From a virus (Duplodnaviria; Heunggongvirae; Uroviricota; Caudoviricetes), in the IMG/VR virus record IMGVR_UViG_2703718833_000007, positions 6,191-70,190 of that record: 64,000 bases of DNA; one strand, given 5' to 3'. The notes under the pieces are model-generated. The model was not told where the DNA came from. It saw nothing but the letters and a program-made list of their open reading frames with translations, and ran no database searches. Below, one piece after another: positions 1,917 to 53,171 of this stretch (its first letter is position 1; every line of letters begins with the position of its first letter). A program made the position numbers and the translations under genes.

Positions 1917-2222
1917 TGTATTTTCTCCTATGGTTAAAATGAACGCGCTGGCGGGTATCCCATTAGCATTAGATAGCAGTGACTGACCGCTGAACAGATC
2001 CCGCCGTTGCGTGATATTTGTTTTTCGCTTCGCAGCGACACCGGATTTTTAAAGAGCTTTTAAGGTATGTGCCTTTTGTGCTTTCCATTATCTTTTTTCT
2101 TGCATCCTTGCAAGTATGGCCTTACCTTGTCTGCAAGTTTACAGAATGGCGTTAACAGGTCAAGGATTGAAAATTACATTTTGTGACTTGCATCAAATTT
2201 TTTTAGGTTATAGGGTAGCGAC
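1917..2222. promoter_or_regulatory. Divergent immunity control region (PR-like / PRM-like promoters, putative operators)
   Basis: 306-bp gap between divergent wHTH gene and repressor gene; repeated CTTGCA(A/T)G palindromic motifs near 2097-2195; minus-strand TTGCAA-17-TAATGG promoter-like element. Confidence 0.45.
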
Positions 2223-2993: not shown

Positions 2994-3022
2994 TTGACTC
3001 GGTGTTTTACGTGGCGTATATT
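2994..3022 (+). promoter_or_regulatory. Sigma70 promoter (PL analogue) for rightward early operon
   Basis: TTGACT - 17 nt - TATATT preceded by AT-rich UP-like tract. Confidence 0.5.
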
Positions 3023-3063: not shown

Positions 3064-3101
3064 TGCTCTTTAACAATCTGGTCAGCCGCTGGAAGTGCGG
3101 C
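3064..3101 (+). promoter_or_regulatory. nut-like site: rrn-type boxA (TGCTCTTTAACAA) plus boxB-like hairpin
   Basis: Exact 13-nt boxA consensus, then 8-nt spacer and GCCGC-UGGAAGU-GCGGC hairpin, between promoter and N-like gene. Confidence 0.5.
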
Positions 3102-3156
3102 AATTAACGAAGATGATTTTTATTAAGTATCATCAAGGATATAAGGAGATCAGATC

Positions 3157-3447
3157 ATGACCGTTACAATCATGTATGGCAAATGTGATAGCAAAATAAA
3201 CGCCAGGGAACGCAGAAGAATAAAAAGAGAAAACGAAAGAAAATCATCACCTGCAATTAATAAAACAGACAATGTGGATAAAGCTATTCGCTTTGCAAAC
3301 GAGGAAAGATGCAAACCAAATAGCATTAAAGAACGTCGCAAAGGAGCAGTAAAATGGTATACGGAAAATGAAAGCGGCAACTACTACCACGCAACGCAAC
3401 CACGCCAGTTAGGGGAAAAACCCCTTGATAAAGTCCGTTACCATTAA
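3157..3447 (+). CDS. N-like transcription antiterminator (P22 gp24 / lambda N analogue)
   Basis: Track ORF 96 aa; strong AAGGAG SD; N-terminal MTVTIMYGK and arginine-rich motif ARERRRIKRENERK; immediately downstream of nut-like site. Confidence 0.65.
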   Translation: MTVTIMYGKCDSKINARERRRIKRENERKSSPAINKTDNVDKAIRFANEERCKPNSIKERRKGAVKWYTENESGNYYHATQPRQLGEKPLDKVRYH

Positions 3448-3477: not shown

Positions 3478-3600
3478 ATGGTTATTCAGGCGCTCCAATT
3501 CAAACTGGCGGTAGCGGAAATGCTTCATGATGCCGAAATGTGGAGCGCCGCGAATAAAGCCTTGTATGTAGTGTTAACAGCGAAGGAGATCAAAGAGTGA
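3478..3600 (+). CDS. Hypothetical protein (40 aa)
   Basis: Own translation MVIQALQFKLAVAEMLHDAEMWSAANKALYVVLTAKEIKE; GGAGGTGA SD; stop overlaps erf start. Confidence 0.35.
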   Translation: MVIQALQFKLAVAEMLHDAEMWSAANKALYVVLTAKEIKE

Positions 3601-4250
3601 AAACAGAGTTACACAAAAAACTGTGGACGATTCAGCAAACGCTGAACGCGCCTAAAAATCAGCGTAATAATTTCGGCGGGTATAATTACAGATCAGCGGA
3701 GGATATTTTAGAAGCGGTTAAACCACTGCTTCAAAATATCACGCTGACTGTTAGTGATGAAATTGTCCTGATCGGCAATCGCTATTACGTGAAAGCAACG
3801 GCGACGCTAAGCGACGGTGAAGATGAAATAGCGGTAACGGCTTACGCCAGGGAGGAAGAAAGCAAGAAGGGAATGGACGCAAGCCAGCTAACAGGAGCAA
3901 CATCAAGTTACGCGCGGAAATATGCTTTGAACGGATTGTTCTGCATTGACGACGCCCGCGATCCTGATACTGACGCATACGCGAAGCAGACAGGCCAGCA
4001 GCCACGCCAGCAGAAAAATACGCCAAAACAGCAACCTAATCAGAAACCACAGCAGCAGAAAGCGCCGCCAAATCCTGATGAGGTGTTAGCACGTTTTTGT
4101 GATGCGGCAGCGAAAGCGCAGGACGAAAAAACACTAAGGGAAATATTCGGTAAATGTTGGAAGCTGTTACCTGAAAATTCAGAGCAACGGCAGAAAGCGC
4201 AAGATTGTTACCAGATCCGTAAGGATGAACTGAATGGAACAATTAACTAA
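3597..4250 (+). CDS. erf: Erf-family single-strand annealing recombination protein
   Basis: Track ORF 217 aa (GTG start); LNAPKNQRNNFGGYNYRSAEDILEAVKPLL and GATSSYARKYALNGLF closely match remembered P22 Erf. Confidence 0.85.
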   Translation: MKTELHKKLWTIQQTLNAPKNQRNNFGGYNYRSAEDILEAVKPLLQNITLTVSDEIVLIGNRYYVKATATLSDGEDEIAVTAYAREEESKKGMDASQLTGATSSYARKYALNGLFCIDDARDPDTDAYAKQTGQQPRQQKNTPKQQPNQKPQQQKAPPNPDEVLARFCDAAAKAQDEKTLREIFGKCWKLLPENSEQRQKAQDCYQIRKDELNGTIN

Positions 4251-4830
4251 AAAATGCACAAAATGCGGCAGAATCCTGCCGCTTAACTCTTTCCTGAAGC
4301 ACAAATCATGCAAATACGGCGTAGCTGGTACATGTAAGGATTGCGCAAAGGTATACAGGGAAGCCAATAAAGACAAAATAGCCGAGCAAAATAGAAGATG
4401 GAGGGAAAAACACAAGGAAGAAATTCGAGAAAAGGATAGAAAATACTACGAAGAACACAAAGAAGAATGTAATAAGCGAGCGAAAGAGTATCGTAAAAAT
4501 AACAAAGAAAAAATATTGGAAAAGAAAAATAATTGGGTAAGAAGAAACGAGGAAAGGTTAAAGGAGTATAGGAGACAATACCACGAAGATTATAAAGAAA
4601 GAAATAAGGCGGAACTAAAGGCAAGAACAAAACTAAGCAACGCCATTAGAGATGGTAAAGTATTAAGGCCAAATAAATGTGATAGGTGCGGGAAAAAGTG
4701 CACTCCTGATGGGCATCATTGGAATTATGCATATCCGCTAAATGTTGTTTGGTTATGCCGTTCTTGTCATAAGATAGTGCATTTTAAGTTTGGGTGTATA
4801 CACGAAAACATTAACGGGGAGATCGGTTAA
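4234..4830 (+). CDS. HNH-motif zinc-ribbon protein (putative HNH endonuclease)
   Basis: Track ORF 198 aa; N-terminal CxxC...CxxC, K/E/R-rich middle, C-terminal CDRCGKKCTPDGHHWNYAYPLNVVWLCRSCHKIVH. Confidence 0.5.
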   Translation: MEQLTKKCTKCGRILPLNSFLKHKSCKYGVAGTCKDCAKVYREANKDKIAEQNRRWREKHKEEIREKDRKYYEEHKEECNKRAKEYRKNNKEKILEKKNNWVRRNEERLKEYRRQYHEDYKERNKAELKARTKLSNAIRDGKVLRPNKCDRCGKKCTPDGHHWNYAYPLNVVWLCRSCHKIVHFKFGCIHENINGEIG

Positions 4831-5234
4831 TGAGCTTAAATTTAATCACACTTGGCGGTAATATTGGGAATGATATGAAAGTTCGCTACACGCAAAACGG
4901 GAAGGCGATTGGTAGTTTTTCGTTAGCTGTAACGAATGGATACGGTGATAATAAACGGACAATGTGGATCACTTGTCTGGTATTTGGCGAGCGTGCGGAA
5001 AAATTAGCGCCACATATCCGCAAGGGCGGGAAAATAGTGGTAAGCGGTCGCCTGGACGTTCGGCAATATGACTGGAACGACGGCACGAAGGGGACTGCGG
5101 TAGAAGTGGCGGTTAATGAGTTCGAATTTTGCAGCAGAAACGATCAGCAACCACAGCAACAGCAGCAACAGCAGAATAATGGCGGTGGATATGAAGAGCC
5201 GCCAATGGATTTTGATGATTCAATTCCTTTTTAA
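4830..5234 (+). CDS. ssb: Single-stranded DNA-binding protein
   Basis: Track ORF 134 aa; OB-fold-like N-terminus, Gln-rich linker, acidic C-terminal tail DFDDSIPF. Confidence 0.9.
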   Translation: MSLNLITLGGNIGNDMKVRYTQNGKAIGSFSLAVTNGYGDNKRTMWITCLVFGERAEKLAPHIRKGGKIVVSGRLDVRQYDWNDGTKGTAVEVAVNEFEFCSRNDQQPQQQQQQQNNGGGYEEPPMDFDDSIPF

Positions 5235-5249
5235 ATCAATAGGTTAGCG

Positions 5250-5528
5250 ATGGTCGATTATTTAAAACCGCCACCGCCACCGCGAACAAAAGAGCAAGTA
5301 TTAAAAGAAGCCCGTGATCAAATCGATCATGGGCTTTTTTTATGTGGCACGGCAGCGGAACGGATGGCAAAAAGATTCAGTGACCTGTACGCAAAACAAA
5401 TATGGTTCGACAACTGGCAGGCAAGTTTTTATCCACTGCAAAGAAAACCGGATATGCACTGGCCTGAATATGTCGATCCGCGTATGCGCAAATATCGCGG
5501 GCGTATGGGCCAGGTCATTAACGATTAA
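5250..5528 (+). CDS. Hypothetical protein
   Basis: Track ORF 92 aa, + strand, packed with neighbours; no family recognised. Confidence 0.4.
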   Translation: MVDYLKPPPPPRTKEQVLKEARDQIDHGLFLCGTAAERMAKRFSDLYAKQIWFDNWQASFYPLQRKPDMHWPEYVDPRMRKYRGRMGQVIND

Positions 5529-5767
5529 TGAGGTATCAAATCATGATCGAAGAAAAAGAAGTTGATAAGGAAATGCCTGACACAGCAGATGACTACGTTA
5601 CTTTTGATGGCGGCCTGTATGAGTTCGATACGTCGGCTGGGTGGACGGATAAGTGGCCTCTTCCTACTCGCCAGGAATTAATGGCGCGCAAATCATTCGG
5701 CGAAGATGCGGAACGCCTTGCCAATAACAAATGGCTTGATAAGTTCATTGCGGAGGGTGGCAAATGA
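5528..5767 (+). CDS. Hypothetical protein (start uncertain, possibly 5543)
   Basis: Track ORF 79 aa; stop overlaps next ATG. Confidence 0.35.
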   Translation: MRYQIMIEEKEVDKEMPDTADDYVTFDGGLYEFDTSAGWTDKWPLPTRQELMARKSFGEDAERLANNKWLDKFIAEGGK

Positions 5768-5877
5768 ACCTTGCAAAAATTGCCGCATTGCTTGCGGCTT
5801 TGTCTATCGCTGTGCTGTATCTCAGTGTATCGCTTTATATCACGGTAGCGATCATTAAACTCATTACTAACATGTGA
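5764..5877 (+). CDS. Small hydrophobic peptide (37 aa)
   Basis: Own translation MNLAKIAALLAALSIAVLYLSVSLYITVAIIKLITNM; ATGA overlap with upstream stop. Confidence 0.35.
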   Translation: MNLAKIAALLAALSIAVLYLSVSLYITVAIIKLITNM

Positions 5878-5885
5878 GGTTAATC

Positions 5886-6005
5886 ATGAAAGTCGGTAAG
5901 GATATTGTAACGGTCGCGTTTTGCATTATTTGCTTCCTGTTTGTGGTTGTGTTTTGTGGCGGATTTGCTGCGTTGGTTAGCCTTATTTTTAGGGGGTTGC
6001 TGTAA
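5886..6005 (+). CDS. Small hydrophobic peptide (39 aa)
   Basis: Own translation MKVGKDIVTVAFCIICFLFVVVFCGGFAALVSLIFRGLL; GAGG SD; stop overlaps next ATG. Confidence 0.35.
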   Translation: MKVGKDIVTVAFCIICFLFVVVFCGGFAALVSLIFRGLL

Positions 6006-6277
6006 TGAAAACATGGGATGCAAAGGCTGGCGATCTTGTTGTATTGCCTGAATATCGTGATGACCCTGGCATGGTTGTGCTGAATAAGACGTATAACGAT
6101 TTTGAGCGCCCACTATTGGTTAAATATCTGGACGGAGAAATCATAGAACCGCGCTACTTTGATGAGATTGAACTAAAGGCACGCAATGTCCGCGTTAAGC
6201 CGTTCCGGGCTTATGTTGAAGACCACTGGCGTAAATTGTTCGCCGGACTGAATGGGATGTACGGCGTATGGCTATAA
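6005..6277 (+). CDS. Hypothetical protein
   Basis: Track ORF 90 aa, packed in operon. Confidence 0.4.
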   Translation: MKTWDAKAGDLVVLPEYRDDPGMVVLNKTYNDFERPLLVKYLDGEIIEPRYFDEIELKARNVRVKPFRAYVEDHWRKLFAGLNGMYGVWL

Positions 6278-6468
6278 AATTAGTGAAAGTTAAACACCTG
6301 AAAGGCGGTGAGACGATCCGCGCGTGGTATGGATACGAATTTACTGTATCTGCATTTTATTTCGGTCCTGGTGGTCAGGTGACACTATTTGACGAAGATT
6401 TATGCGAGGTTGGGCAATGGCATCTTGAACAATATGTTGAGGTGTTAAATGAAAATCAAGTTTTATAA
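6268..6468 (+). CDS. Hypothetical protein
   Basis: Track ORF 66 aa, overlaps neighbours by a few nt. Confidence 0.35.
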   Translation: MAIKLVKVKHLKGGETIRAWYGYEFTVSAFYFGPGGQVTLFDEDLCEVGQWHLEQYVEVLNENQVL

Positions 6469-6781
6469 AAGTTATGATTCAGCTACTAACAAGCTATCAC
6501 TATTTATTGAGTTCGAACGCCGGATCGTGGTTGTTCCTTATTCTCGGCGCTTTAATGATGCAGCAGGGCGGCGACAGTTCGCGTTAGATATGTTGTTACG
6601 CGGTTGCGGCCTTATGCGCCCGCTATCTGATTTAAAACGGATGATGCCTGGATCGTTCGGTCAGATTGATGAAATAGAAATAAGTCAGGAAGAACTAAAA
6701 CGGGCGCGTGATTTATTCCTTTCAAGCGAAGGAAACCAGTTTAATCCAGAAACTGAAATGAAATGGCATCACCCACTATAA
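6449..6781 (+). CDS. Hypothetical protein
   Basis: Track ORF 110 aa. Confidence 0.4.
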   Translation: MKIKFYKSYDSATNKLSLFIEFERRIVVVPYSRRFNDAAGRRQFALDMLLRGCGLMRPLSDLKRMMPGSFGQIDEIEISQEELKRARDLFLSSEGNQFNPETEMKWHHPL

Positions 6782-6794
6782 AAGGATAAATATC

Positions 6795-7415
6795 ATGAAC
6801 GACATCAAAACAGCTTATTCACTCGGCAGCGAAGGCATGTTAATCACTCGCTACACTGAAGACGCAAGTTTTCATGAAGTAGAAATTAAAGATTATCACG
6901 AAGTATTGAAAGATATGGAAGCTGGCAAGTATGACGCTGATTTGAATCTGGCGTTACAGATTGTTGATATTGTGATGGATGCAAACATCCGCGATTATGT
7001 GTCTTTAAGTGCGGAAGAAAAAACATCGGTAGCTCGCTATGTCTTCTGTCTTGCTTTCGTAAAACGCATGGAAGAGGAATATGGGCGCGTACCAGTGCCG
7101 GAAGAGATTGACCCGCTTGCGTTCGGAAGCGCTGTTATCTTCCCGCTTGATGAAAACCGTATGGGAAGCATTGCGCTGTATTCTATGCGTGGCATGATGA
7201 AAAAACTCTTTGAAGTTAAGGTGATGCAGAAATGTATTGATGAAGGCCACAAAGAGGAAGAAATAAAATTTTTCATGCCATTGTTTTACGGTGAAATGGT
7301 CGGAAATGATATGCGTGCAAATGATCTAGGTGTACAGGCGGCTATTGCGGTGCTTAATGATGCACGGAAAAATTCACAGCCAATGCCGGAACCGGAAAAA
7401 CGTGTACTGCATTAA
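6795..7415 (+). CDS. Hypothetical protein
   Basis: Track ORF 206 aa; no family recognised. Confidence 0.45.
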   Translation: MNDIKTAYSLGSEGMLITRYTEDASFHEVEIKDYHEVLKDMEAGKYDADLNLALQIVDIVMDANIRDYVSLSAEEKTSVARYVFCLAFVKRMEEEYGRVPVPEEIDPLAFGSAVIFPLDENRMGSIALYSMRGMMKKLFEVKVMQKCIDEGHKEEEIKFFMPLFYGEMVGNDMRANDLGVQAAIAVLNDARKNSQPMPEPEKRVLH

Positions 7416-7512
7416 CAGCGTGATTGCGATCACATGAACATACATTTTGTGTTGTGATTGCATATCCGTTTTGTAAACTTAAATTAAAGGTTTACATCGC
7501 GGAGGAAAGTAA

Positions 7513-7732
7513 GATGGAACGTGAATACATGCTTTATTGCGTTGAGGGTGGCGTAGGTAGCGATGCCTACGTCGCCGGGAAAAGCTATCCAGCAGATGAA
7601 GTGCTTTCTAATATGCACTTCCGTGAAAATGAAAACCAGGTGTCTGTGTGGAAGCGATGCGTTGATGGTATTGAAGTCGTTAGCCTTGAAAGATATTTGG
7701 GTAAATTCGACTACGGATTAATTGAGGCTTAA
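7513..7732 (+). CDS. Hypothetical protein (73 aa from MEREYML)
   Basis: Track ORF 7424-7732 trimmed to internal ATG preceded by GGAGGAAAG SD. Confidence 0.35.
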
Positions 7733-7830
7733 CTATGGACGAATCATTGCTATTCATGTGCATTTGCTGGGGTTTTATTGCCTTATGCCTGTTTATCAGG
7801 TGGTTTATTGAATACCACATGAGGTGATAT

Positions 7831-8025
7831 ATGGAACAGAAAACTGATTATAGAATACCTGACAACCTGAAATTGGTTGGTATTGGTTTTGGTTGTCGTT
7901 TTGTATCTGACGTAAACGGGGCTATTTATTTAGTGCGCATCATTGATGGCGTTCAGCATATAAGAAGGCTAGGACTTTATATCAAAGCATTCAGGAGAGG
8001 TTATTTGAAAACTCATGAAATTTAA
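7831..8025 (+). CDS. Hypothetical protein
   Basis: Track ORF 64 aa. Confidence 0.3.
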   Translation: MEQKTDYRIPDNLKLVGIGFGCRFVSDVNGAIYLVRIIDGVQHIRRLGLYIKAFRRGYLKTHEI

Positions 8026-8218
8026 ACAGTATAAAGAATGGAAGATTCCAGAAGAAGCAACAAAGGCAGCGCCAGGAAGTTTTTCTGGCGTTTACTTTTA
8101 TATGGGTGGTAAATGGTATTTCGGCAGCAGGCCGGATCACTATTATCAAGAAGTATGCAAATCTCACACCTGGGATATTAATGAACGCGTGCAAGGTGGT
8201 GTAATAGACGAGGTTTAA
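8015..8218 (+). CDS. Hypothetical protein
   Basis: Track ORF 67 aa. Confidence 0.3.
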   Translation: MKFKQYKEWKIPEEATKAAPGSFSGVYFYMGGKWYFGSRPDHYYQEVCKSHTWDINERVQGGVIDEV

Positions 8219-8219
8219 A

Positions 8220-8456
8220 ATGGTTAGGGCTTTTTTAAAGTGGTTAGGTGAGTGGCTTTTGGCTACGCTTTTCGTTTTTTTGACGTTCATTGCAGTAATG
8301 ATCATCTTTCTTCTTTCCATGATGTTCCTTACATGGTCAGTACCAGAGTTTATGGATATTGGTAAGGTTCTTGATTTCGCTCGTGCTTTGTTGCTTTGTA
8401 GTGCATTTATTGGTTTTTGCAGGACTGTTTCGCCTGATTGGGATGATGAATGGTGA
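8220..8456 (+). CDS. Hypothetical membrane protein (2 predicted TM helices)
   Basis: Track ORF 78 aa, hydrophobic segments LLATLFVFLTFIAVMIIFLLSMMFL and ALLLCSAFIGF. Confidence 0.35.
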   Translation: MVRAFLKWLGEWLLATLFVFLTFIAVMIIFLLSMMFLTWSVPEFMDIGKVLDFARALLLCSAFIGFCRTVSPDWDDEW

Positions 8457-8460
8457 TCCT

Positions 8461-8694
8461 ATGGCCTTGTTCAATATGTCAGAGCCGCAATTTAACGCCG
8501 TAAAGACTGCCGCCCGCGCAGCGCTTTCGGCCTGCAAAGCGGAAGTAGAGAAAAACGGCTACAGCGATAAAGCTACGCGGCTGATATTAGAAAAGCATTA
8601 TCGCAAGGTCGCCCCACTAATCAGCATTGAGCGCTTTGTGTGGTTGGTGGGGTATTTAAACAACCGTTGGGGAACGGAACAGGATTATTTCTAA
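8461..8694 (+). CDS. Hypothetical protein
   Basis: Track ORF 8359-8694 trimmed to ATG after upstream stop. Confidence 0.3.
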   Translation: MALFNMSEPQFNAVKTAARAALSACKAEVEKNGYSDKATRLILEKHYRKVAPLISIERFVWLVGYLNNRWGTEQDYF

Positions 8695-8703
8695 GGGGGC
8701 GTA

Positions 8704-9243
8704 ATGAAAAATGATTTTGGAGGCAGCCACACTCCTAAGGAAATTAAAGATCTATGGCAGACGCCTAAACCAGTTTTCAGAGGAATGGATCGGGAATTTG
8801 AATTCGTCGCGGATGTGGCGGCAAACAAGGCAAACGCGCTAGTTCCGCGATATATAACCGAAGAAATGGACACGTTGCATTATCCGTGGGGAGCGGTGGC
8901 AATGCCTGGCGAGTATGTCTGGCTTAATCCGCCATATTCTAAACCGGGGCCATTCGTTGAGAAGGCGGCATTAGAACATCAACGAAATCACATTGGCTGT
9001 GTAATGCTGTTGCCCGCTGACATTTCTGTTAGCTGGTTCATGAACGGCGTGGAGACGGCAAACGAATGCCGATTAATCACGCGCGGGCGTCTGGCGTTTA
9101 TCAATGCTGAGACAGGGAAACCAGCAAGCGGAAACAACAAAGGCAGCTTGTTTTTGATCTGGCATCCACGGTGCAGACATGAATGTATTTTTACGCAGAT
9201 AACACGTAAAGAGCTATATGCAAGAGGTGCAGATAATGACTAG
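8704..9243 (+). CDS. Phage DNA N6-adenine methyltransferase (Dam-like, orphan)
   Basis: Track ORF 179 aa with catalytic NPPY motif (WLNPPYSKPGPF); no adjacent restriction gene. Confidence 0.8.
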   Translation: MKNDFGGSHTPKEIKDLWQTPKPVFRGMDREFEFVADVAANKANALVPRYITEEMDTLHYPWGAVAMPGEYVWLNPPYSKPGPFVEKAALEHQRNHIGCVMLLPADISVSWFMNGVETANECRLITRGRLAFINAETGKPASGNNKGSLFLIWHPRCRHECIFTQITRKELYARGADND

Positions 9244-9664
9244 TGCGGCAGATTTACTACGAATCGCAGCGGAAACAATAGAGCAAAGGGGTAAACAAAA
9301 CGGATACGACAGAAAAGAGGAAAAATCAGCGCCAAAAATAGCCACTATTTACAACGCTAAGAAGGGTACAAATTTAACCCCGCTTGATGTATGGGATCTG
9401 TTGATTTGTCTCAAGGAGGCGCGTTTAGAGGCCATTTTGGTAAATGGTTCTGACCCTACTGATACTTTGGTTGACTTGATTAGCTACAGCGCACTAAAAG
9501 CTGAGCAGATATTAAGCGATCATGAGGAAGAGCAAAAGAAAAAACAGTTCACTGCTCTTAATCCTCAATGTGGTTGTATTTCAACTCGGCTTGATTTGAG
9601 TTTTGACAGATCTGAAGCTATTCGCGATAAGAGGTATGACCCAAATGAAAAAGGTGGCAATTGA
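9236..9664 (+). CDS. Hypothetical protein
   Basis: Track ORF 9218-9664 trimmed to ATG (MTSAADLL) overlapping Dam stop. Confidence 0.4.
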   Translation: MTSAADLLRIAAETIEQRGKQNGYDRKEEKSAPKIATIYNAKKGTNLTPLDVWDLLICLKEARLEAILVNGSDPTDTLVDLISYSALKAEQILSDHEEEQKKKQFTALNPQCGCISTRLDLSFDRSEAIRDKRYDPNEKGGN

Positions 9665-10148
9665 CAGGTTATTAGCCTGCGTTTATGTCGCCGTTTTCGT
9701 GATCATCAACCTTATTGTTAACCATTGCGGCCCGTGGGTAATTCCGATCACCACGGTAGCCGCTGTGTGTGTCAATATGATGATCCGTGACTTCTTGCTG
9801 TATGACGGCGGCTTGAAATGGTCTGCTACAACATGCGCCGCCGCTGGCGCAATCACGGTAATGATAAATTACGATGCTGGAATGGTAGCGATCGCGTCAT
9901 TCGTTGCGGTTGTTTCCGGTGCGCTTATATCTGGAGGTGTTTACCGGGTTTTGCCTGGTGATTTCGATTCTAAGCGCTGGCCTGCAAACATAGCTTCAGC
10001 CATCGGGGATGCGTTAATTTTCCCGACGCTATCGTTTATGGCGTTTATGCCGGAAATATCAGCGATGCAGTTTATCTCAAAAATGGCAGCGGTAACGGTG
10101 ATCACTATCATCATGCGCCGCTATTTCACGTTTGAGGGTAGAAAATGA
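9645..10148 (+). CDS. Multi-pass inner-membrane protein, possibly VUT/YhhQ-like (queuosine-precursor transporter family)
   Basis: Track ORF 9603-10148, start taken at MKKVAIDRLL with AAGAGG SD; 4-5 hydrophobic segments; family assignment from loose pattern resemblance only. Confidence 0.35.
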   Translation: MKKVAIDRLLACVYVAVFVIINLIVNHCGPWVIPITTVAAVCVNMMIRDFLLYDGGLKWSATTCAAAGAITVMINYDAGMVAIASFVAVVSGALISGGVYRVLPGDFDSKRWPANIASAIGDALIFPTLSFMAFMPEISAMQFISKMAAVTVITIIMRRYFTFEGRK

Positions 10149-10672
10149 ATTGGGATGATTATTTTATATACAATCCGGACACAGGTAAGTTGTACTGGAA
10201 ATATAGAAATGACATAGAAGAATCAAGGCGTAAACAATGGAATGCGTGTAATGCTGGTCATGAGGTTGGACATATTGGCGGAAGCGGTGGGTGTCTTAAT
10301 ACAGCGCTTACCGTTGGCGGAAAGCGTTATAATTTAAAAGTACATAGAATATGTTACGAGATGTACTATGGGCCAATACCTGAAGGTAAGGAGGTTGATC
10401 ATATAAATCACGTTAAAACAGATAATCGAGCCGTCAATCTTGGATTAAAAGACCATAAAGATAATATGCGCAACATGTCTTTAATGGTAAACAATACCAG
10501 TGGGTGCGCTGGTATCCATAAAAATAAACATGGTAAATGGGTTGTTAGAATCGGTGGAGGCAAAAGAGGTAATAGAATTTATATAGGGTGTTTTTCTGAT
10601 ATCAATGACGCAATAAAAGCTAGGCGCGACGCTGAAAGAAAGTATGGCTATCATGAAAATCACGGCAAATAG
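10145..10672 (+). CDS. HNH homing endonuclease (HNH_3 + AP2-like DNA-binding domain), paralogue 1 of 4
   Basis: Track ORF 175 aa; INW-DYF start motif, GPIPEG-EVDHINH HNH core, C-terminal AP2-like (AGIHKNKHGKWVVRI). Confidence 0.85.
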   Translation: MNWDDYFIYNPDTGKLYWKYRNDIEESRRKQWNACNAGHEVGHIGGSGGCLNTALTVGGKRYNLKVHRICYEMYYGPIPEGKEVDHINHVKTDNRAVNLGLKDHKDNMRNMSLMVNNTSGCAGIHKNKHGKWVVRIGGGKRGNRIYIGCFSDINDAIKARRDAERKYGYHENHGK

Positions 10673-10869: not shown

Positions 10870-10902
10870 TGCTCTTTAAAAATCCGGCAGCGCTGAAATG
10901 CG
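10870..10902 (+). promoter_or_regulatory. Second boxA-like element (TGCTCTTTAAAAA) with weak downstream hairpin; possible nutR analogue
   Basis: boxA-like 10/13 match; only a 3-bp stem CGC-UGAAAU-GCG follows, so weaker than site at 3064. Confidence 0.25.
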
Positions 10903-48464: not shown

Positions 48465-48941
48465 CAAAAGCAATTTTTCCGGCTGTCTGTATACAAAAAC
48501 GCCGCAAAGTTTGAGCGAAGTCAATAAACTCTCTACCCATTCAGGGCAATATCTCTCTTGCAGGTGAATGCAACGTCAAGCGATGGGCGTTGCGCTCCAT
48601 ATTGTCTTACTTCCTTTTTTGAATTACTGCATAGCACAATTGATTCGTACGACGCCGACTTTGATGAGTCGGCTTTTTTTTGCCTGTTATTTATCAGCGT
48701 CTACCCTTTAAGAGTCCACCCAATGACCAGAGGGAAATATGACGACACTTATTTATTTGCAAATTCCTGTCCCTGAACCGATTCCTGGCGATCCTGTTCC
48801 AGTGCCCGATCCGATCCCTCGCCCGCAACCCATGCCTGACCCACCACCCGATGAAGAACCGATTAAATTGTCGCATCGTGAGCGTAGATCTGCGAGGATA
48901 CGCGCCTGCTAACTTTGCGTCGATGACCACGAGAATAGATT

Positions 48942-52961: not shown

Positions 52962-53171
52962 TTAATTTGAATACAATGCAATTCTCGAGGACTGAAGTTT
53001 CTCGCAATTAAAATTTATCAGTTTTACTTTCTGCTCTCTGGAAACGCCTGCTTCTTTTTTACCTGAGAGCATTTTTTCGCATTCTGATTTCGTTAGTTTA
53101 GATTTTGAATATCTTGTCCAGTTAGTAGGAGTGCCACCTTCCTTTTCAATAGTGGCGGTAATTTTATACAT
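52962..53171 (-). CDS. rcbA: Rac prophage protein RcbA (YdaC)
   Basis: Track ORF 52962-53243 trimmed to MYKITATIEKEGG. Confidence 0.75.
   Translation of the reverse strand: MYKITATIEKEGGTPTNWTRYSKSKLTKSECEKMLSGKKEAGVSREQKVKLINFNCEKLQSSRIALYSN

Follow-up and report, generated by a model that had tools for sequence, protein, structure and literature searches.

A conserved block of small genes in the probable early operon of an mEp021-like Escherichia coli prophage

The mEpimmI (mEp021) coliphages are non-lambdoid, Nus-dependent temperate siphophages that are common in human faeces (PMC11893012). Phage mEp021 carries a characterised N-like antiterminator, Gp17, which acts with nut sites, and overexpression of its Ipe protein (77-amino-acid form) leads to haemolysis via vesicles with host HlyE and to altered morphology; Ipe is also reported to make lysogens of mEp021 haemolytic (PMC11893012). 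In phage P22, the proposed action of Abc2 is to divert RecBCD to the loading of Erf, and its residue P68 enters the PpiB active site in structures of the RecBCD-Abc2-PpiB complex (Wilkinson et al. 2022, PMC9836394). Here we analysed a block of small genes at positions 5250-8694 of a 64,000-nucleotide stretch of Caudoviricetes DNA (IMG/VR record IMGVR_UViG_2703718833_000007, positions 6,191 to 70,190; this whole stretch is called the window below), which a first-pass annotation made from the letters had described as an early accessory block of about 14 small open reading frames (ORFs). We interpret the block as likely being the conserved middle of the rightward early operon in a temperate siphophage of the mEp021 group that resides as a prophage in Escherichia coli. 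The block is real but ordinary: the region has already been published from related phages, four of its genes can be named, the other ten are conserved but carry no assigned function, and it is no new kind of system.

Sequence matches identify the window as an E. coli prophage belonging to the mEpimmI group. Nucleotide identity over the whole block was 81-90% to the genomes of seven mEpimmI phages (mEp021, MH706966; mEp010; mEp013; mEp044; mEp515; mEp554; and MagusPhagus), and mapping of the annotations showed that the block corresponds to gp21-gp29 of mEp021. Of 5426 complete E. coli genomes, 35 also contained a match to the block, and screening IMG/VR with the 206-amino-acid ORF8 protein added 40 further loci; this exact protein was already present in NCBI, from E. 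coli. Towards the right of the window, Rfam matches at 48560-48677 and 52987-53165 correspond to the host small RNA FnrS and to RalA, an antitoxin RNA from the Rac prophage, which indicates that the right part of the window is host/Rac DNA and that the mEp021-like prophage ends before ~48.5 kb.

The ORF list of the window contained 14 consecutive ORFs on the + strand between 5250 and 8694, matching the number first proposed, and tblastn found all 14 in 41 related phage or prophage loci. Their sizes range from 30 to 206 amino acids; the upper end of the previously given range of 37-206 amino acids stands, whereas the smallest gene (30 amino acids, 7735-7827) had not been listed. We took the last gene to be 8461-8694 rather than a longer TTG-initiated ORF from 8359. 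The features of the block are given below, with ratios of nonsynonymous to synonymous polymorphism (pN/pS) calculated from an alignment of 41 sequences in which the window sequence served as reference.

5250-5528, + strand: ORF1, 92 amino acids, assigned to the Abc2 family, pN/pS 0.11
5543-5767, + strand: ORF2, 74 amino acids, acidic (isoelectric point 4.4), probably DUF2737-like; the frame also opens at 5528 (79 amino acids)
5764-5877, + strand: ORF3, 37 amino acids, predicted single-pass membrane peptide, pN/pS 0.23
5886-6005, + strand: ORF4, 39 amino acids, predicted single-pass membrane peptide, pN/pS 0.46
6005-6277, + strand: ORF5, 90 amino acids, phrog_28396, pN/pS 0.23
6268-6468, + strand: ORF6, 66 amino acids, acidic, phrog_34199, pN/pS 0.27
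6449-6781, + strand: ORF7, 110 amino acids, basic, phrog_34371, pN/pS 0.17
6795-7415, + strand: ORF8, 206 amino acids, acidic, phrog_1515 (E 7e-56), pN/pS 0.21
7416-7513, + strand: ORF8-ORF9 spacer, 98 nucleotides, non-coding, two stem-loops
7514-7732, + strand: ORF9, 72 amino acids, acidic, phrog_28996, pN/pS 0.19
7735-7827, + strand: ORF10, 30 amino acids, predicted membrane peptide, pN/pS 0.28
7831-8025, + strand: ORF11, 64 amino acids, basic, phrog_37004, two allelic types
8015-8218, + strand: ORF12, 67 amino acids, assigned to DUF7274 (PF23939)
8068-8102, + strand: intrinsic terminator inside ORF12, 11-bp stem and T-rich tract
8220-8456, + strand: ORF13, 78 amino acids, predicted membrane protein with two hydrophobic segments, pN/pS 0.48
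8461-8694, + strand: ORF14, 77 amino acids, PHROG 303, assigned to Ipe, pN/pS 0.05

All 14 ORFs are under purifying selection and, including those of 30, 37 and 39 amino acids, behave as real protein-coding genes. Every ORF showed an excess of variation at third codon positions and a pN/pS between 0.05 and 0.48. Non-coding sequence amounts to 143 of the 3445 nucleotides (~96% coding), 98 of them in the single gap at 7416-7513, and several neighbouring ORFs overlap (ATGA, TAATG, or overlaps of 10-20 nucleotides), with a GAGG-type motif ahead of each start codon. For the tandem hydrophobic peptides noted at first pass at 5764-5877 and 5886-6005, the coordinates were exact and the frames stop-free and conserved. 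In these two ORFs and in ORF10, the annotated frame was the sole stop-free frame of six across all 41 sequences and had the lowest pN/pS of the six (0.23, 0.46 and 0.28 for the 37-, 39- and 30-amino-acid ORFs, respectively), with GAGG or GGAGG 5-12 nucleotides upstream of the start. It is this combination of a stop-free frame, lowest pN/pS, third-position variation and conservation in relatives that leads us to treat the mini-ORFs as genes. Apparent frameshifts of ORFs in some relatives were alignment artefacts that arose from upstream in-frame indels.

Existing annotations differ at this point, as the PHANOTATE annotation of mEp010 includes the mini-ORFs while the mEp021 record and RefSeq leave them unannotated. 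One could thus read 5764-6005 as a non-coding regulatory spacer with accidental open frames, given that mEp021 and RefSeq show no coding sequence there, that mEp021 has an annotated terminator (TERM_2) at the equivalent of 5782-5798, and that a 6-bp GC-rich hairpin is found at these positions. The T tract of this hairpin is poor, however, and a different hairpin replaces it in the 'MKKIAM' variants, while both frames are open in 41/41 sequences where the other five frames carry 5-248 stops, indels keep the frame, pN/pS is low in both, Shine-Dalgarno motifs are good, starts and stops are coupled, and PHANOTATE calls both genes in mEp010. We reject the non-coding reading because of this evolutionary evidence and regard it as exceedingly improbable. 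The 5782-5798 hairpin is weak and is missing from some variants, and we do not regard it as a terminator.

Gene content across the block is fixed among relatives. The alignment was colinear across the 41 loci, which differed only in that three of them carry insertions and that ORF11 and ORF13 have diverged into distinct alleles. The insertions (loci L036-L038) are ~300-750 nucleotides long, the size of homing endonuclease genes, and one variant among them, with a disrupted ORF10, begins with sequence resembling a second HNH-like ORF of the window at 10145-10672. ORF11 is 40-98% identical to its relatives, with two allelic types that are ~40% identical, and ORF13 diverges more than any other gene in the block, at no more than 65% identity to any of the 41 relatives where its neighbours reach 97-99%. 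This divergence suggests local allelic replacement or fast evolution of the two genes inside an otherwise fixed block.

These observations bear on the description of the block as accessory, which is doubtful for a set of genes that are all present and colinear in 41/41 relatives, and on the related possibility that the block is a variable anti-defence island, in which most small ORFs inhibit bacterial immunity and are gathered between the recombination genes and the methylases. Such an island would account for early expression, small size and the lack of families; for a beginning with Abc2, which neutralises the immunity hub RecBCD, and for Dam and other methylase genes after the block; for replacement or rapid divergence at ORF11 and ORF13, as in an arms race; and for ORF2, ORF6, ORF8 and ORF9, which are small and acidic like DNA mimics. 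In known anti-defence islands, genes come and go between close relatives. Here, by contrast, the gene content is identical and colinear, most genes are under ordinary purifying selection, and searches of Pfam and PADLOC/NCBIfam gave no match to known anti-defence or defence profiles. Because the gene content is invariant in 41 relatives and anti-defence matches are absent, the island idea is weakened and we consider it doubtful; the invariant content makes the block look like lineage core instead. Individual genes may still act against host defences, the acidic ORF2, ORF6, ORF8 and ORF9 being the most plausible candidates and ORF11 and ORF13 the fastest-changing. The first-pass suggestion of host-takeover or anti-defence candidates thus retains ORF1, as an Abc2-type RecBCD modifier, and ORF14, as the host-perturbing Ipe, and finds no counterpart among known defence-related families for any ORF.

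Placement of the block downstream of ssb in an early operon, as initially proposed, agrees with the signals that surround it. The best promoter-like site of the region is sigma-70-like (10/12 positions) and lies at 2994-3022, and a LexA/CI-type repressor gene is found upstream of the block. A boxA-like TGCTCTTTA at 3064-3072 with a hairpin after it (3064-3104) resembles nutR1, the gene at 3157-3447 (+) encodes a protein 98% identical to mEp021 Gp17, and a second boxA-like motif at 10870-10878 (+) fits the published position of nutR2 in mEp021 (PMC11893012). The motifs at 3064 and 10870 place the block between nutR1 and nutR2, and hence in the rightward early operon. With an N-like arginine-rich protein, boxA/hairpin sites and an internal terminator (8068-8102) for which read-through is predicted, the features of an N-antiterminated early operon are all present. 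Considering both strands, boxA-like motifs (TGCTCTTTA or AGCTCTTTA) occur at 3064-3072 (+), 10870-10878 (+) and 2050-2058 (-), the positions expected of nutR1, nutR2 and nutL, and a longer string, GCTCTTTAAAAATCCGG, is common to the sites at 10870 and 2050.

Four of the 14 genes could be named, and the first of these follows directly on the recombination genes, which are:

3597-4250, + strand: Erf recombinase (PHROG 155, E 1e-49)
4234-4830, + strand: HNH endonuclease between erf and ssb (PHROG 2340, E 1e-33)
4830-5234, + strand: SSB, directly upstream of ORF1 (PHROG 44, E 1e-44)

We assign ORF1 by homology to the Abc2 family of anti-RecBCD proteins. It matched PHROG 656 ('abc2 anti-RecBCD') over its full length (E 5e-32), tblastn gave 35-46% identity to the annotated Abc2 proteins of JEP4, HK620, Sf6 and HK542 (E 2e-7 to 2e-10), and a four-sequence profile that included ORF1 matched P22 Abc2 in PDB 8B1T (8B1T_A; E 2e-42). 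Its residue P62 stands in an invariant column with P68 of P22, the PpiB site. With erf and ssb directly upstream, in a recombination-gene order as in HK620 and JEP4, ORF1 can be assigned as the gene that completes the Erf-SSB recombination module. Unlike P22, the window contained no recognised homologue of abc1 or arf. The gene between erf and ssb is HNH/endonuclease VII-like and probably a homing endonuclease; in the mEp554 record, the gene just before the block is annotated as 'endonuclease VII'.

ORF2 is probably DUF2737-like rather than a member of DUF2737, since its match to PF10930, at 15.5 bits, fell short of the gathering score (25). It also matched PHROG 4684 (E 1.7e-6) and PHROG 1117 (E 5e-4), its C-terminal half had 15 invariant columns with HkaI of HK620 (DUF2737), and it comes directly after abc2, a position as in HK620. 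A GAGG lies 9 nucleotides upstream of the start at 5543, and the frame from 5528 is interrupted by a stop at its fourth codon in most relatives, which makes 5543 (74 amino acids) the most likely start. The order of annealase, SSB, Abc2, DUF2737 and small early genes is also seen in HK620 and JEP4.

Near the end of the block, ORF12 is assigned by profile match to DUF7274 (PF23939; 35.6 bits against a gathering score of 24.5, E 9e-9), with weak tblastn relatives in Klebsiella T1-like phages (Webervirus). The terminator scan placed an 11-bp hairpin and T-rich tail at 8068-8102, within this gene, and the records of mEp021 (TERM_3) and mEp010 (T5, an ARNold terminator) both show a terminator at this place. 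One stem position is variable, and there both sides change synonymously (Pro CCA to CCC with Ser TCT to TCG), such that pairing is kept in 18 of 20 distinct sequences (CG 9, AU 6, UG 2, GU 1, broken 2). ORF12 thus contains a conserved intrinsic terminator, and from its location the expression of ORF13, ipe and dam should depend on Gp17.

The last gene, ORF14, is by sequence the orthologue of mEp021 Ipe (gp29, 'inducer of pleiotropic effects'), with 75/77 residues identical (97%) and a match to PHROG 303 at E 9e-25. In-frame ATGs at 8443, 8446, 8461 and 8476 would give proteins of 83, 82, 77 and 72 amino acids, and the same four starts occur in ORF-4 of mEp021. The title of the primary Ipe paper also names cell death. 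An AlphaFold2 model of ORF14 predicted four helices with a predicted local distance difference test score (pLDDT) of 89.7. Homologues of Ipe were present in 816 phage records, mostly of Klebsiella and Escherichia phages and T1-like, and the six that we examined were all Drexlerviridae.

The first-pass annotation had singled out two genes for small transmembrane peptides, both of which are real, and the block holds four predicted membrane ORFs in all, those at 7735-7827 and 8220-8456 being the additional ones. Maximum Kyte-Doolittle hydropathy over 19 residues exceeded 2.2 in these four (2.39 in ORF3, 3.04 in ORF4, 2.25 in ORF10 and 2.96 in ORF13). ORF3 (GGAGG upstream) was intact in 39/41 relatives and corresponds to the hypothetical protein mEp010_29, ORF4 (GAGG upstream) to mEp010_30, and ORF10 (GAGG upstream; intact in 38/41 relatives) to mEp010_37. 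The TWSxPEF loop and the acidic tail PDWDDEW of ORF13 are conserved. Pfam, PHROG and NCBIfam gave no family for ORF3 and ORF4, and ORF13 had only sub-threshold matches to DUF350 and YejM in Pfam/NCBIfam. The RefSeq label of ORF13, 'cell division protein FtsK', found no support in any profile search. Outside this lineage, the T1-like phage Phagiculus encodes a 39-amino-acid hydrophobic peptide (positions 1739-1858 of our locus L050) directly downstream of its Ipe homologue; the peptide bears no visible relation to those of the window, but shows that the early region of this phage, too, encodes tiny membrane peptides.

Small hydrophobic genes in a prophage raise the possibility of 'moron' genes with a toxic or exclusion function that are expressed from the prophage and act in the lysogen, for instance as type I-toxin-like or superinfection-exclusion proteins; the mini-ORFs would be such genes, perhaps together with ORF13 and Ipe. 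The single-pass helices of 30-39 amino acids are like Hok- or TisB-class toxins, RefSeq labels ORF5 as a toxin subunit, and the reported haemolytic phenotype of mEp021 lysogens through Ipe implies some expression from the prophage. Yet Pfam and NCBIfam yielded no match to the 37-, 39- and 30-amino-acid peptides even at E up to 10, type I toxin families (Hok, TisB, Ldr, Ibs) included, and an Rfam scan of 5000-9000 returned no antitoxin RNA and no match except a sub-threshold Thr leader. The genes also have no promoter-like site of their own and are translationally coupled within a repressor-controlled early operon, the toxin label of ORF5 lacks profile support, and the exclusion proteins characterised in the mEpimmI group are Lpp lipoproteins encoded elsewhere. 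We therefore judge a moron role to be very unlikely.

The remaining genes encode soluble proteins. ORF3-11 and ORF13 had no match in Pfam, NCBIfam, PADLOC or PDB and fell only into lineage-specific PHROGs that carry no function, such that the absence of recognisable families, as first described, applies to most of the block and fails for ORF1, ORF12, ORF14 and probably ORF2; broad matches to housekeeping phage proteins were not seen, Abc2 apart. The mEp021 record and RefSeq label ORF5 a 'toxin-antitoxin subunit', for which we found nothing in Pfam, NCBIfam, PADLOC or PDB, and tblastn with ORF5 gave matches in mEpimmI phages only and none in plasmids. ORF6 stops three codons earlier in relatives, giving 63 amino acids. 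ORF8 was intact in 41/41 relatives and hardly occurs outside this lineage: a HMMER search with it against 1.84 billion representative proteins returned 6 clusters, with one truly distant full-length homologue (P0135, 29% identity); cluster P0136, a GAF-repeat protein, was regarded as a spurious match. No relative of ORF8 was found in a scan of genome contigs and no sequence match in PDB, and its single-sequence AlphaFold2 model was poor (pLDDT 49).

A metagenome scan with the ORF7 alignment found close relatives only. On a short metagenomic contig, L052 (ENA ERZ27253218 k141_50865, positions 282-1581), homologues of ORF7 (53% identity), ORF8 (28%) and ORF9 (35%) were present in the same order, that of ORF7 directly upstream of that of ORF8 and that of ORF9 downstream of it, with a gene ahead of the three that differs from the window's. 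The L052 spacer is similar to that of the window and keeps the motifs ATACRTTTTGT and TATCCGTTTTGTA. Given that the order and the spacer motifs are kept in this distant lineage, ORF7-8-9 (6449-7732) appears to be a conserved unit. The spacer itself (7416-7513) forms two predicted, conserved hairpins on the mRNA strand, and its 3' helix overlaps the Shine-Dalgarno site of ORF9. RNAalifold gave a consensus energy of -27 kcal/mol with 98.4% of cells paired, and the variation at 13 pairs consists solely of G-U-compatible transitions, which would fail on the opposite strand; covariation did not exceed the shuffle control, and the spacer had no Rfam match. It may serve in translation or processing, or bind a protein.

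Taken together, our best reading divides the segment into four parts: completion of recombination (Abc2 and the DUF2737-like protein), small membrane proteins, small soluble proteins, and a terminal Ipe. Transcription would most likely start at the promoter-like site 2994-3022, and the polymerase would probably become termination-resistant via Gp17 at nutR1 and then pass through the Erf-HNH-SSB genes into 14 mostly translationally coupled genes. From homology and the literature, ORF1 would bind RecC, recruit PpiB by its conserved proline, and convert the host RecBCD, which otherwise destroys linear phage DNA, into an aid to recombination by Erf, with ORF2 accompanying it as in P22-like phages; Ipe, when abundant, would perturb the cell envelope, giving HlyE vesicles and altered morphology; and the ORF12 terminator would make ORF13, ipe and dam dependent on antitermination. 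More speculatively, the four small membrane proteins (37, 39, 30 and 78 amino acids) may insert in the inner membrane and modulate the envelope or membrane proteins in early infection, for example in exclusion or host shut-off, and the soluble ORF5-9 and ORF11 may be lineage-specific binders of host proteins, with ORF7-8-9 acting jointly.

Several points weigh against this reading. For 10 of the 14 genes no function was obtained, and the roles proposed for the membrane peptides draw on hydrophobicity and position only. ORF1 is only 32-37% identical to P22-type Abc2 proteins, and a single-sequence search with it failed to find PDB 8B1T. The phenotype of Ipe was seen on overexpression and is known second-hand, the covariation of the terminator stem concerns a single base pair, and the experimentally tested terminators of mEp021 could not be mapped onto the window. 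A bolder reading takes the four membrane proteins together with Ipe as a core set of the mEpimmI lineage for host takeover aimed at the envelope, in which Ipe would act on a conserved host target to cause vesiculation while the ORF12 terminator and the ORF8-ORF9 spacer would time expression. We hold this to be unlikely; if true, the Ipe/PHROG 303 family would be a widespread and unrecognised phage effector of the Gram-negative envelope.

For annotation, the value of the block lies in its genes of 30-39 amino acids, which are real, and in the labels 'toxin-antitoxin toxin subunit' and 'cell division protein FtsK', which are misleading. As leads we see the target of the Ipe family, which is common to temperate mEp021-like and virulent T1-like phages; the role of three membrane peptides of 30-39 amino acids that no member of this phage group, common in the human gut, has lost; and a terminator that paired synonymous changes preserve within a gene. 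Present views of phage early regions would stand whatever these leads bring. Downstream of the block lie dam and other methylase genes and, after dam in the same operon, a gene for a DUF6378 protein (9218-9664; Pfam E 6e-8), one for a 181-amino-acid multi-pass membrane protein (9603-10148; PHROG 4899), and then the HNH-like gene.

Among known systems, the T1-like phages (Drexlerviridae: Tls, NBD2, NJS1) are linked to the block through Ipe. Their PHROG 303 proteins are 75-79 amino acids long and 24-47% identical to Ipe, with N12, F59, W61, G64, Y65 and R69 in common, and their genes likewise stand among small early genes. T1-like phages differ in being virulent and in having this gene upstream of the small terminase subunit, and in those examined it was not preceded by a membrane protein gene and showed no linkage to dam. 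To our knowledge, no phenotype has been reported for these T1-like proteins.

P22 Abc2 (PDB 8B1T/8B1U) is the described counterpart of ORF1, which is of like length class, has the C-terminal PEYxDPRxRxY motif and the P68-equivalent proline, and diverges in its N-terminal half; both are associated with a single-strand annealing protein and SSB. The hkaI-hkaD 'ea' region of HK620 (P22-like/lambdoid) resembles the block in having small, mostly uncharacterised early genes after a recombination module, with Abc2 and then DUF2737 first, and in having internal terminators that are read through, in the window by prediction, by N-type antitermination. Only the Abc2 gene and the DUF2737-like gene are common to the two, however, and we therefore take the likeness to be one of position and style rather than of membership. 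The operon of the window continues to methylase, nin-like and Q genes, while the 'ea' region leads towards xis and int, and gene content is fixed within the lineage of the window.

The closest match by far is the mEp021 group itself, in which the equivalent block has the same gene order and the same genes as the window (Negrete-Mendez et al. 2025, PMC11893012). Differences are minor: starts and stops of ORF2 and ORF6 vary slightly, the window has its own allele of ORF13, its copy is a prophage in an E. coli chromosome, and it has the HNH gene between erf and ssb, as does mEp554, where mEp021 lacks it. The antiterminator and Ipe of mEp021 are 98% and 97% identical to those of the window, and the terminator embedded in ORF12 is common to both.

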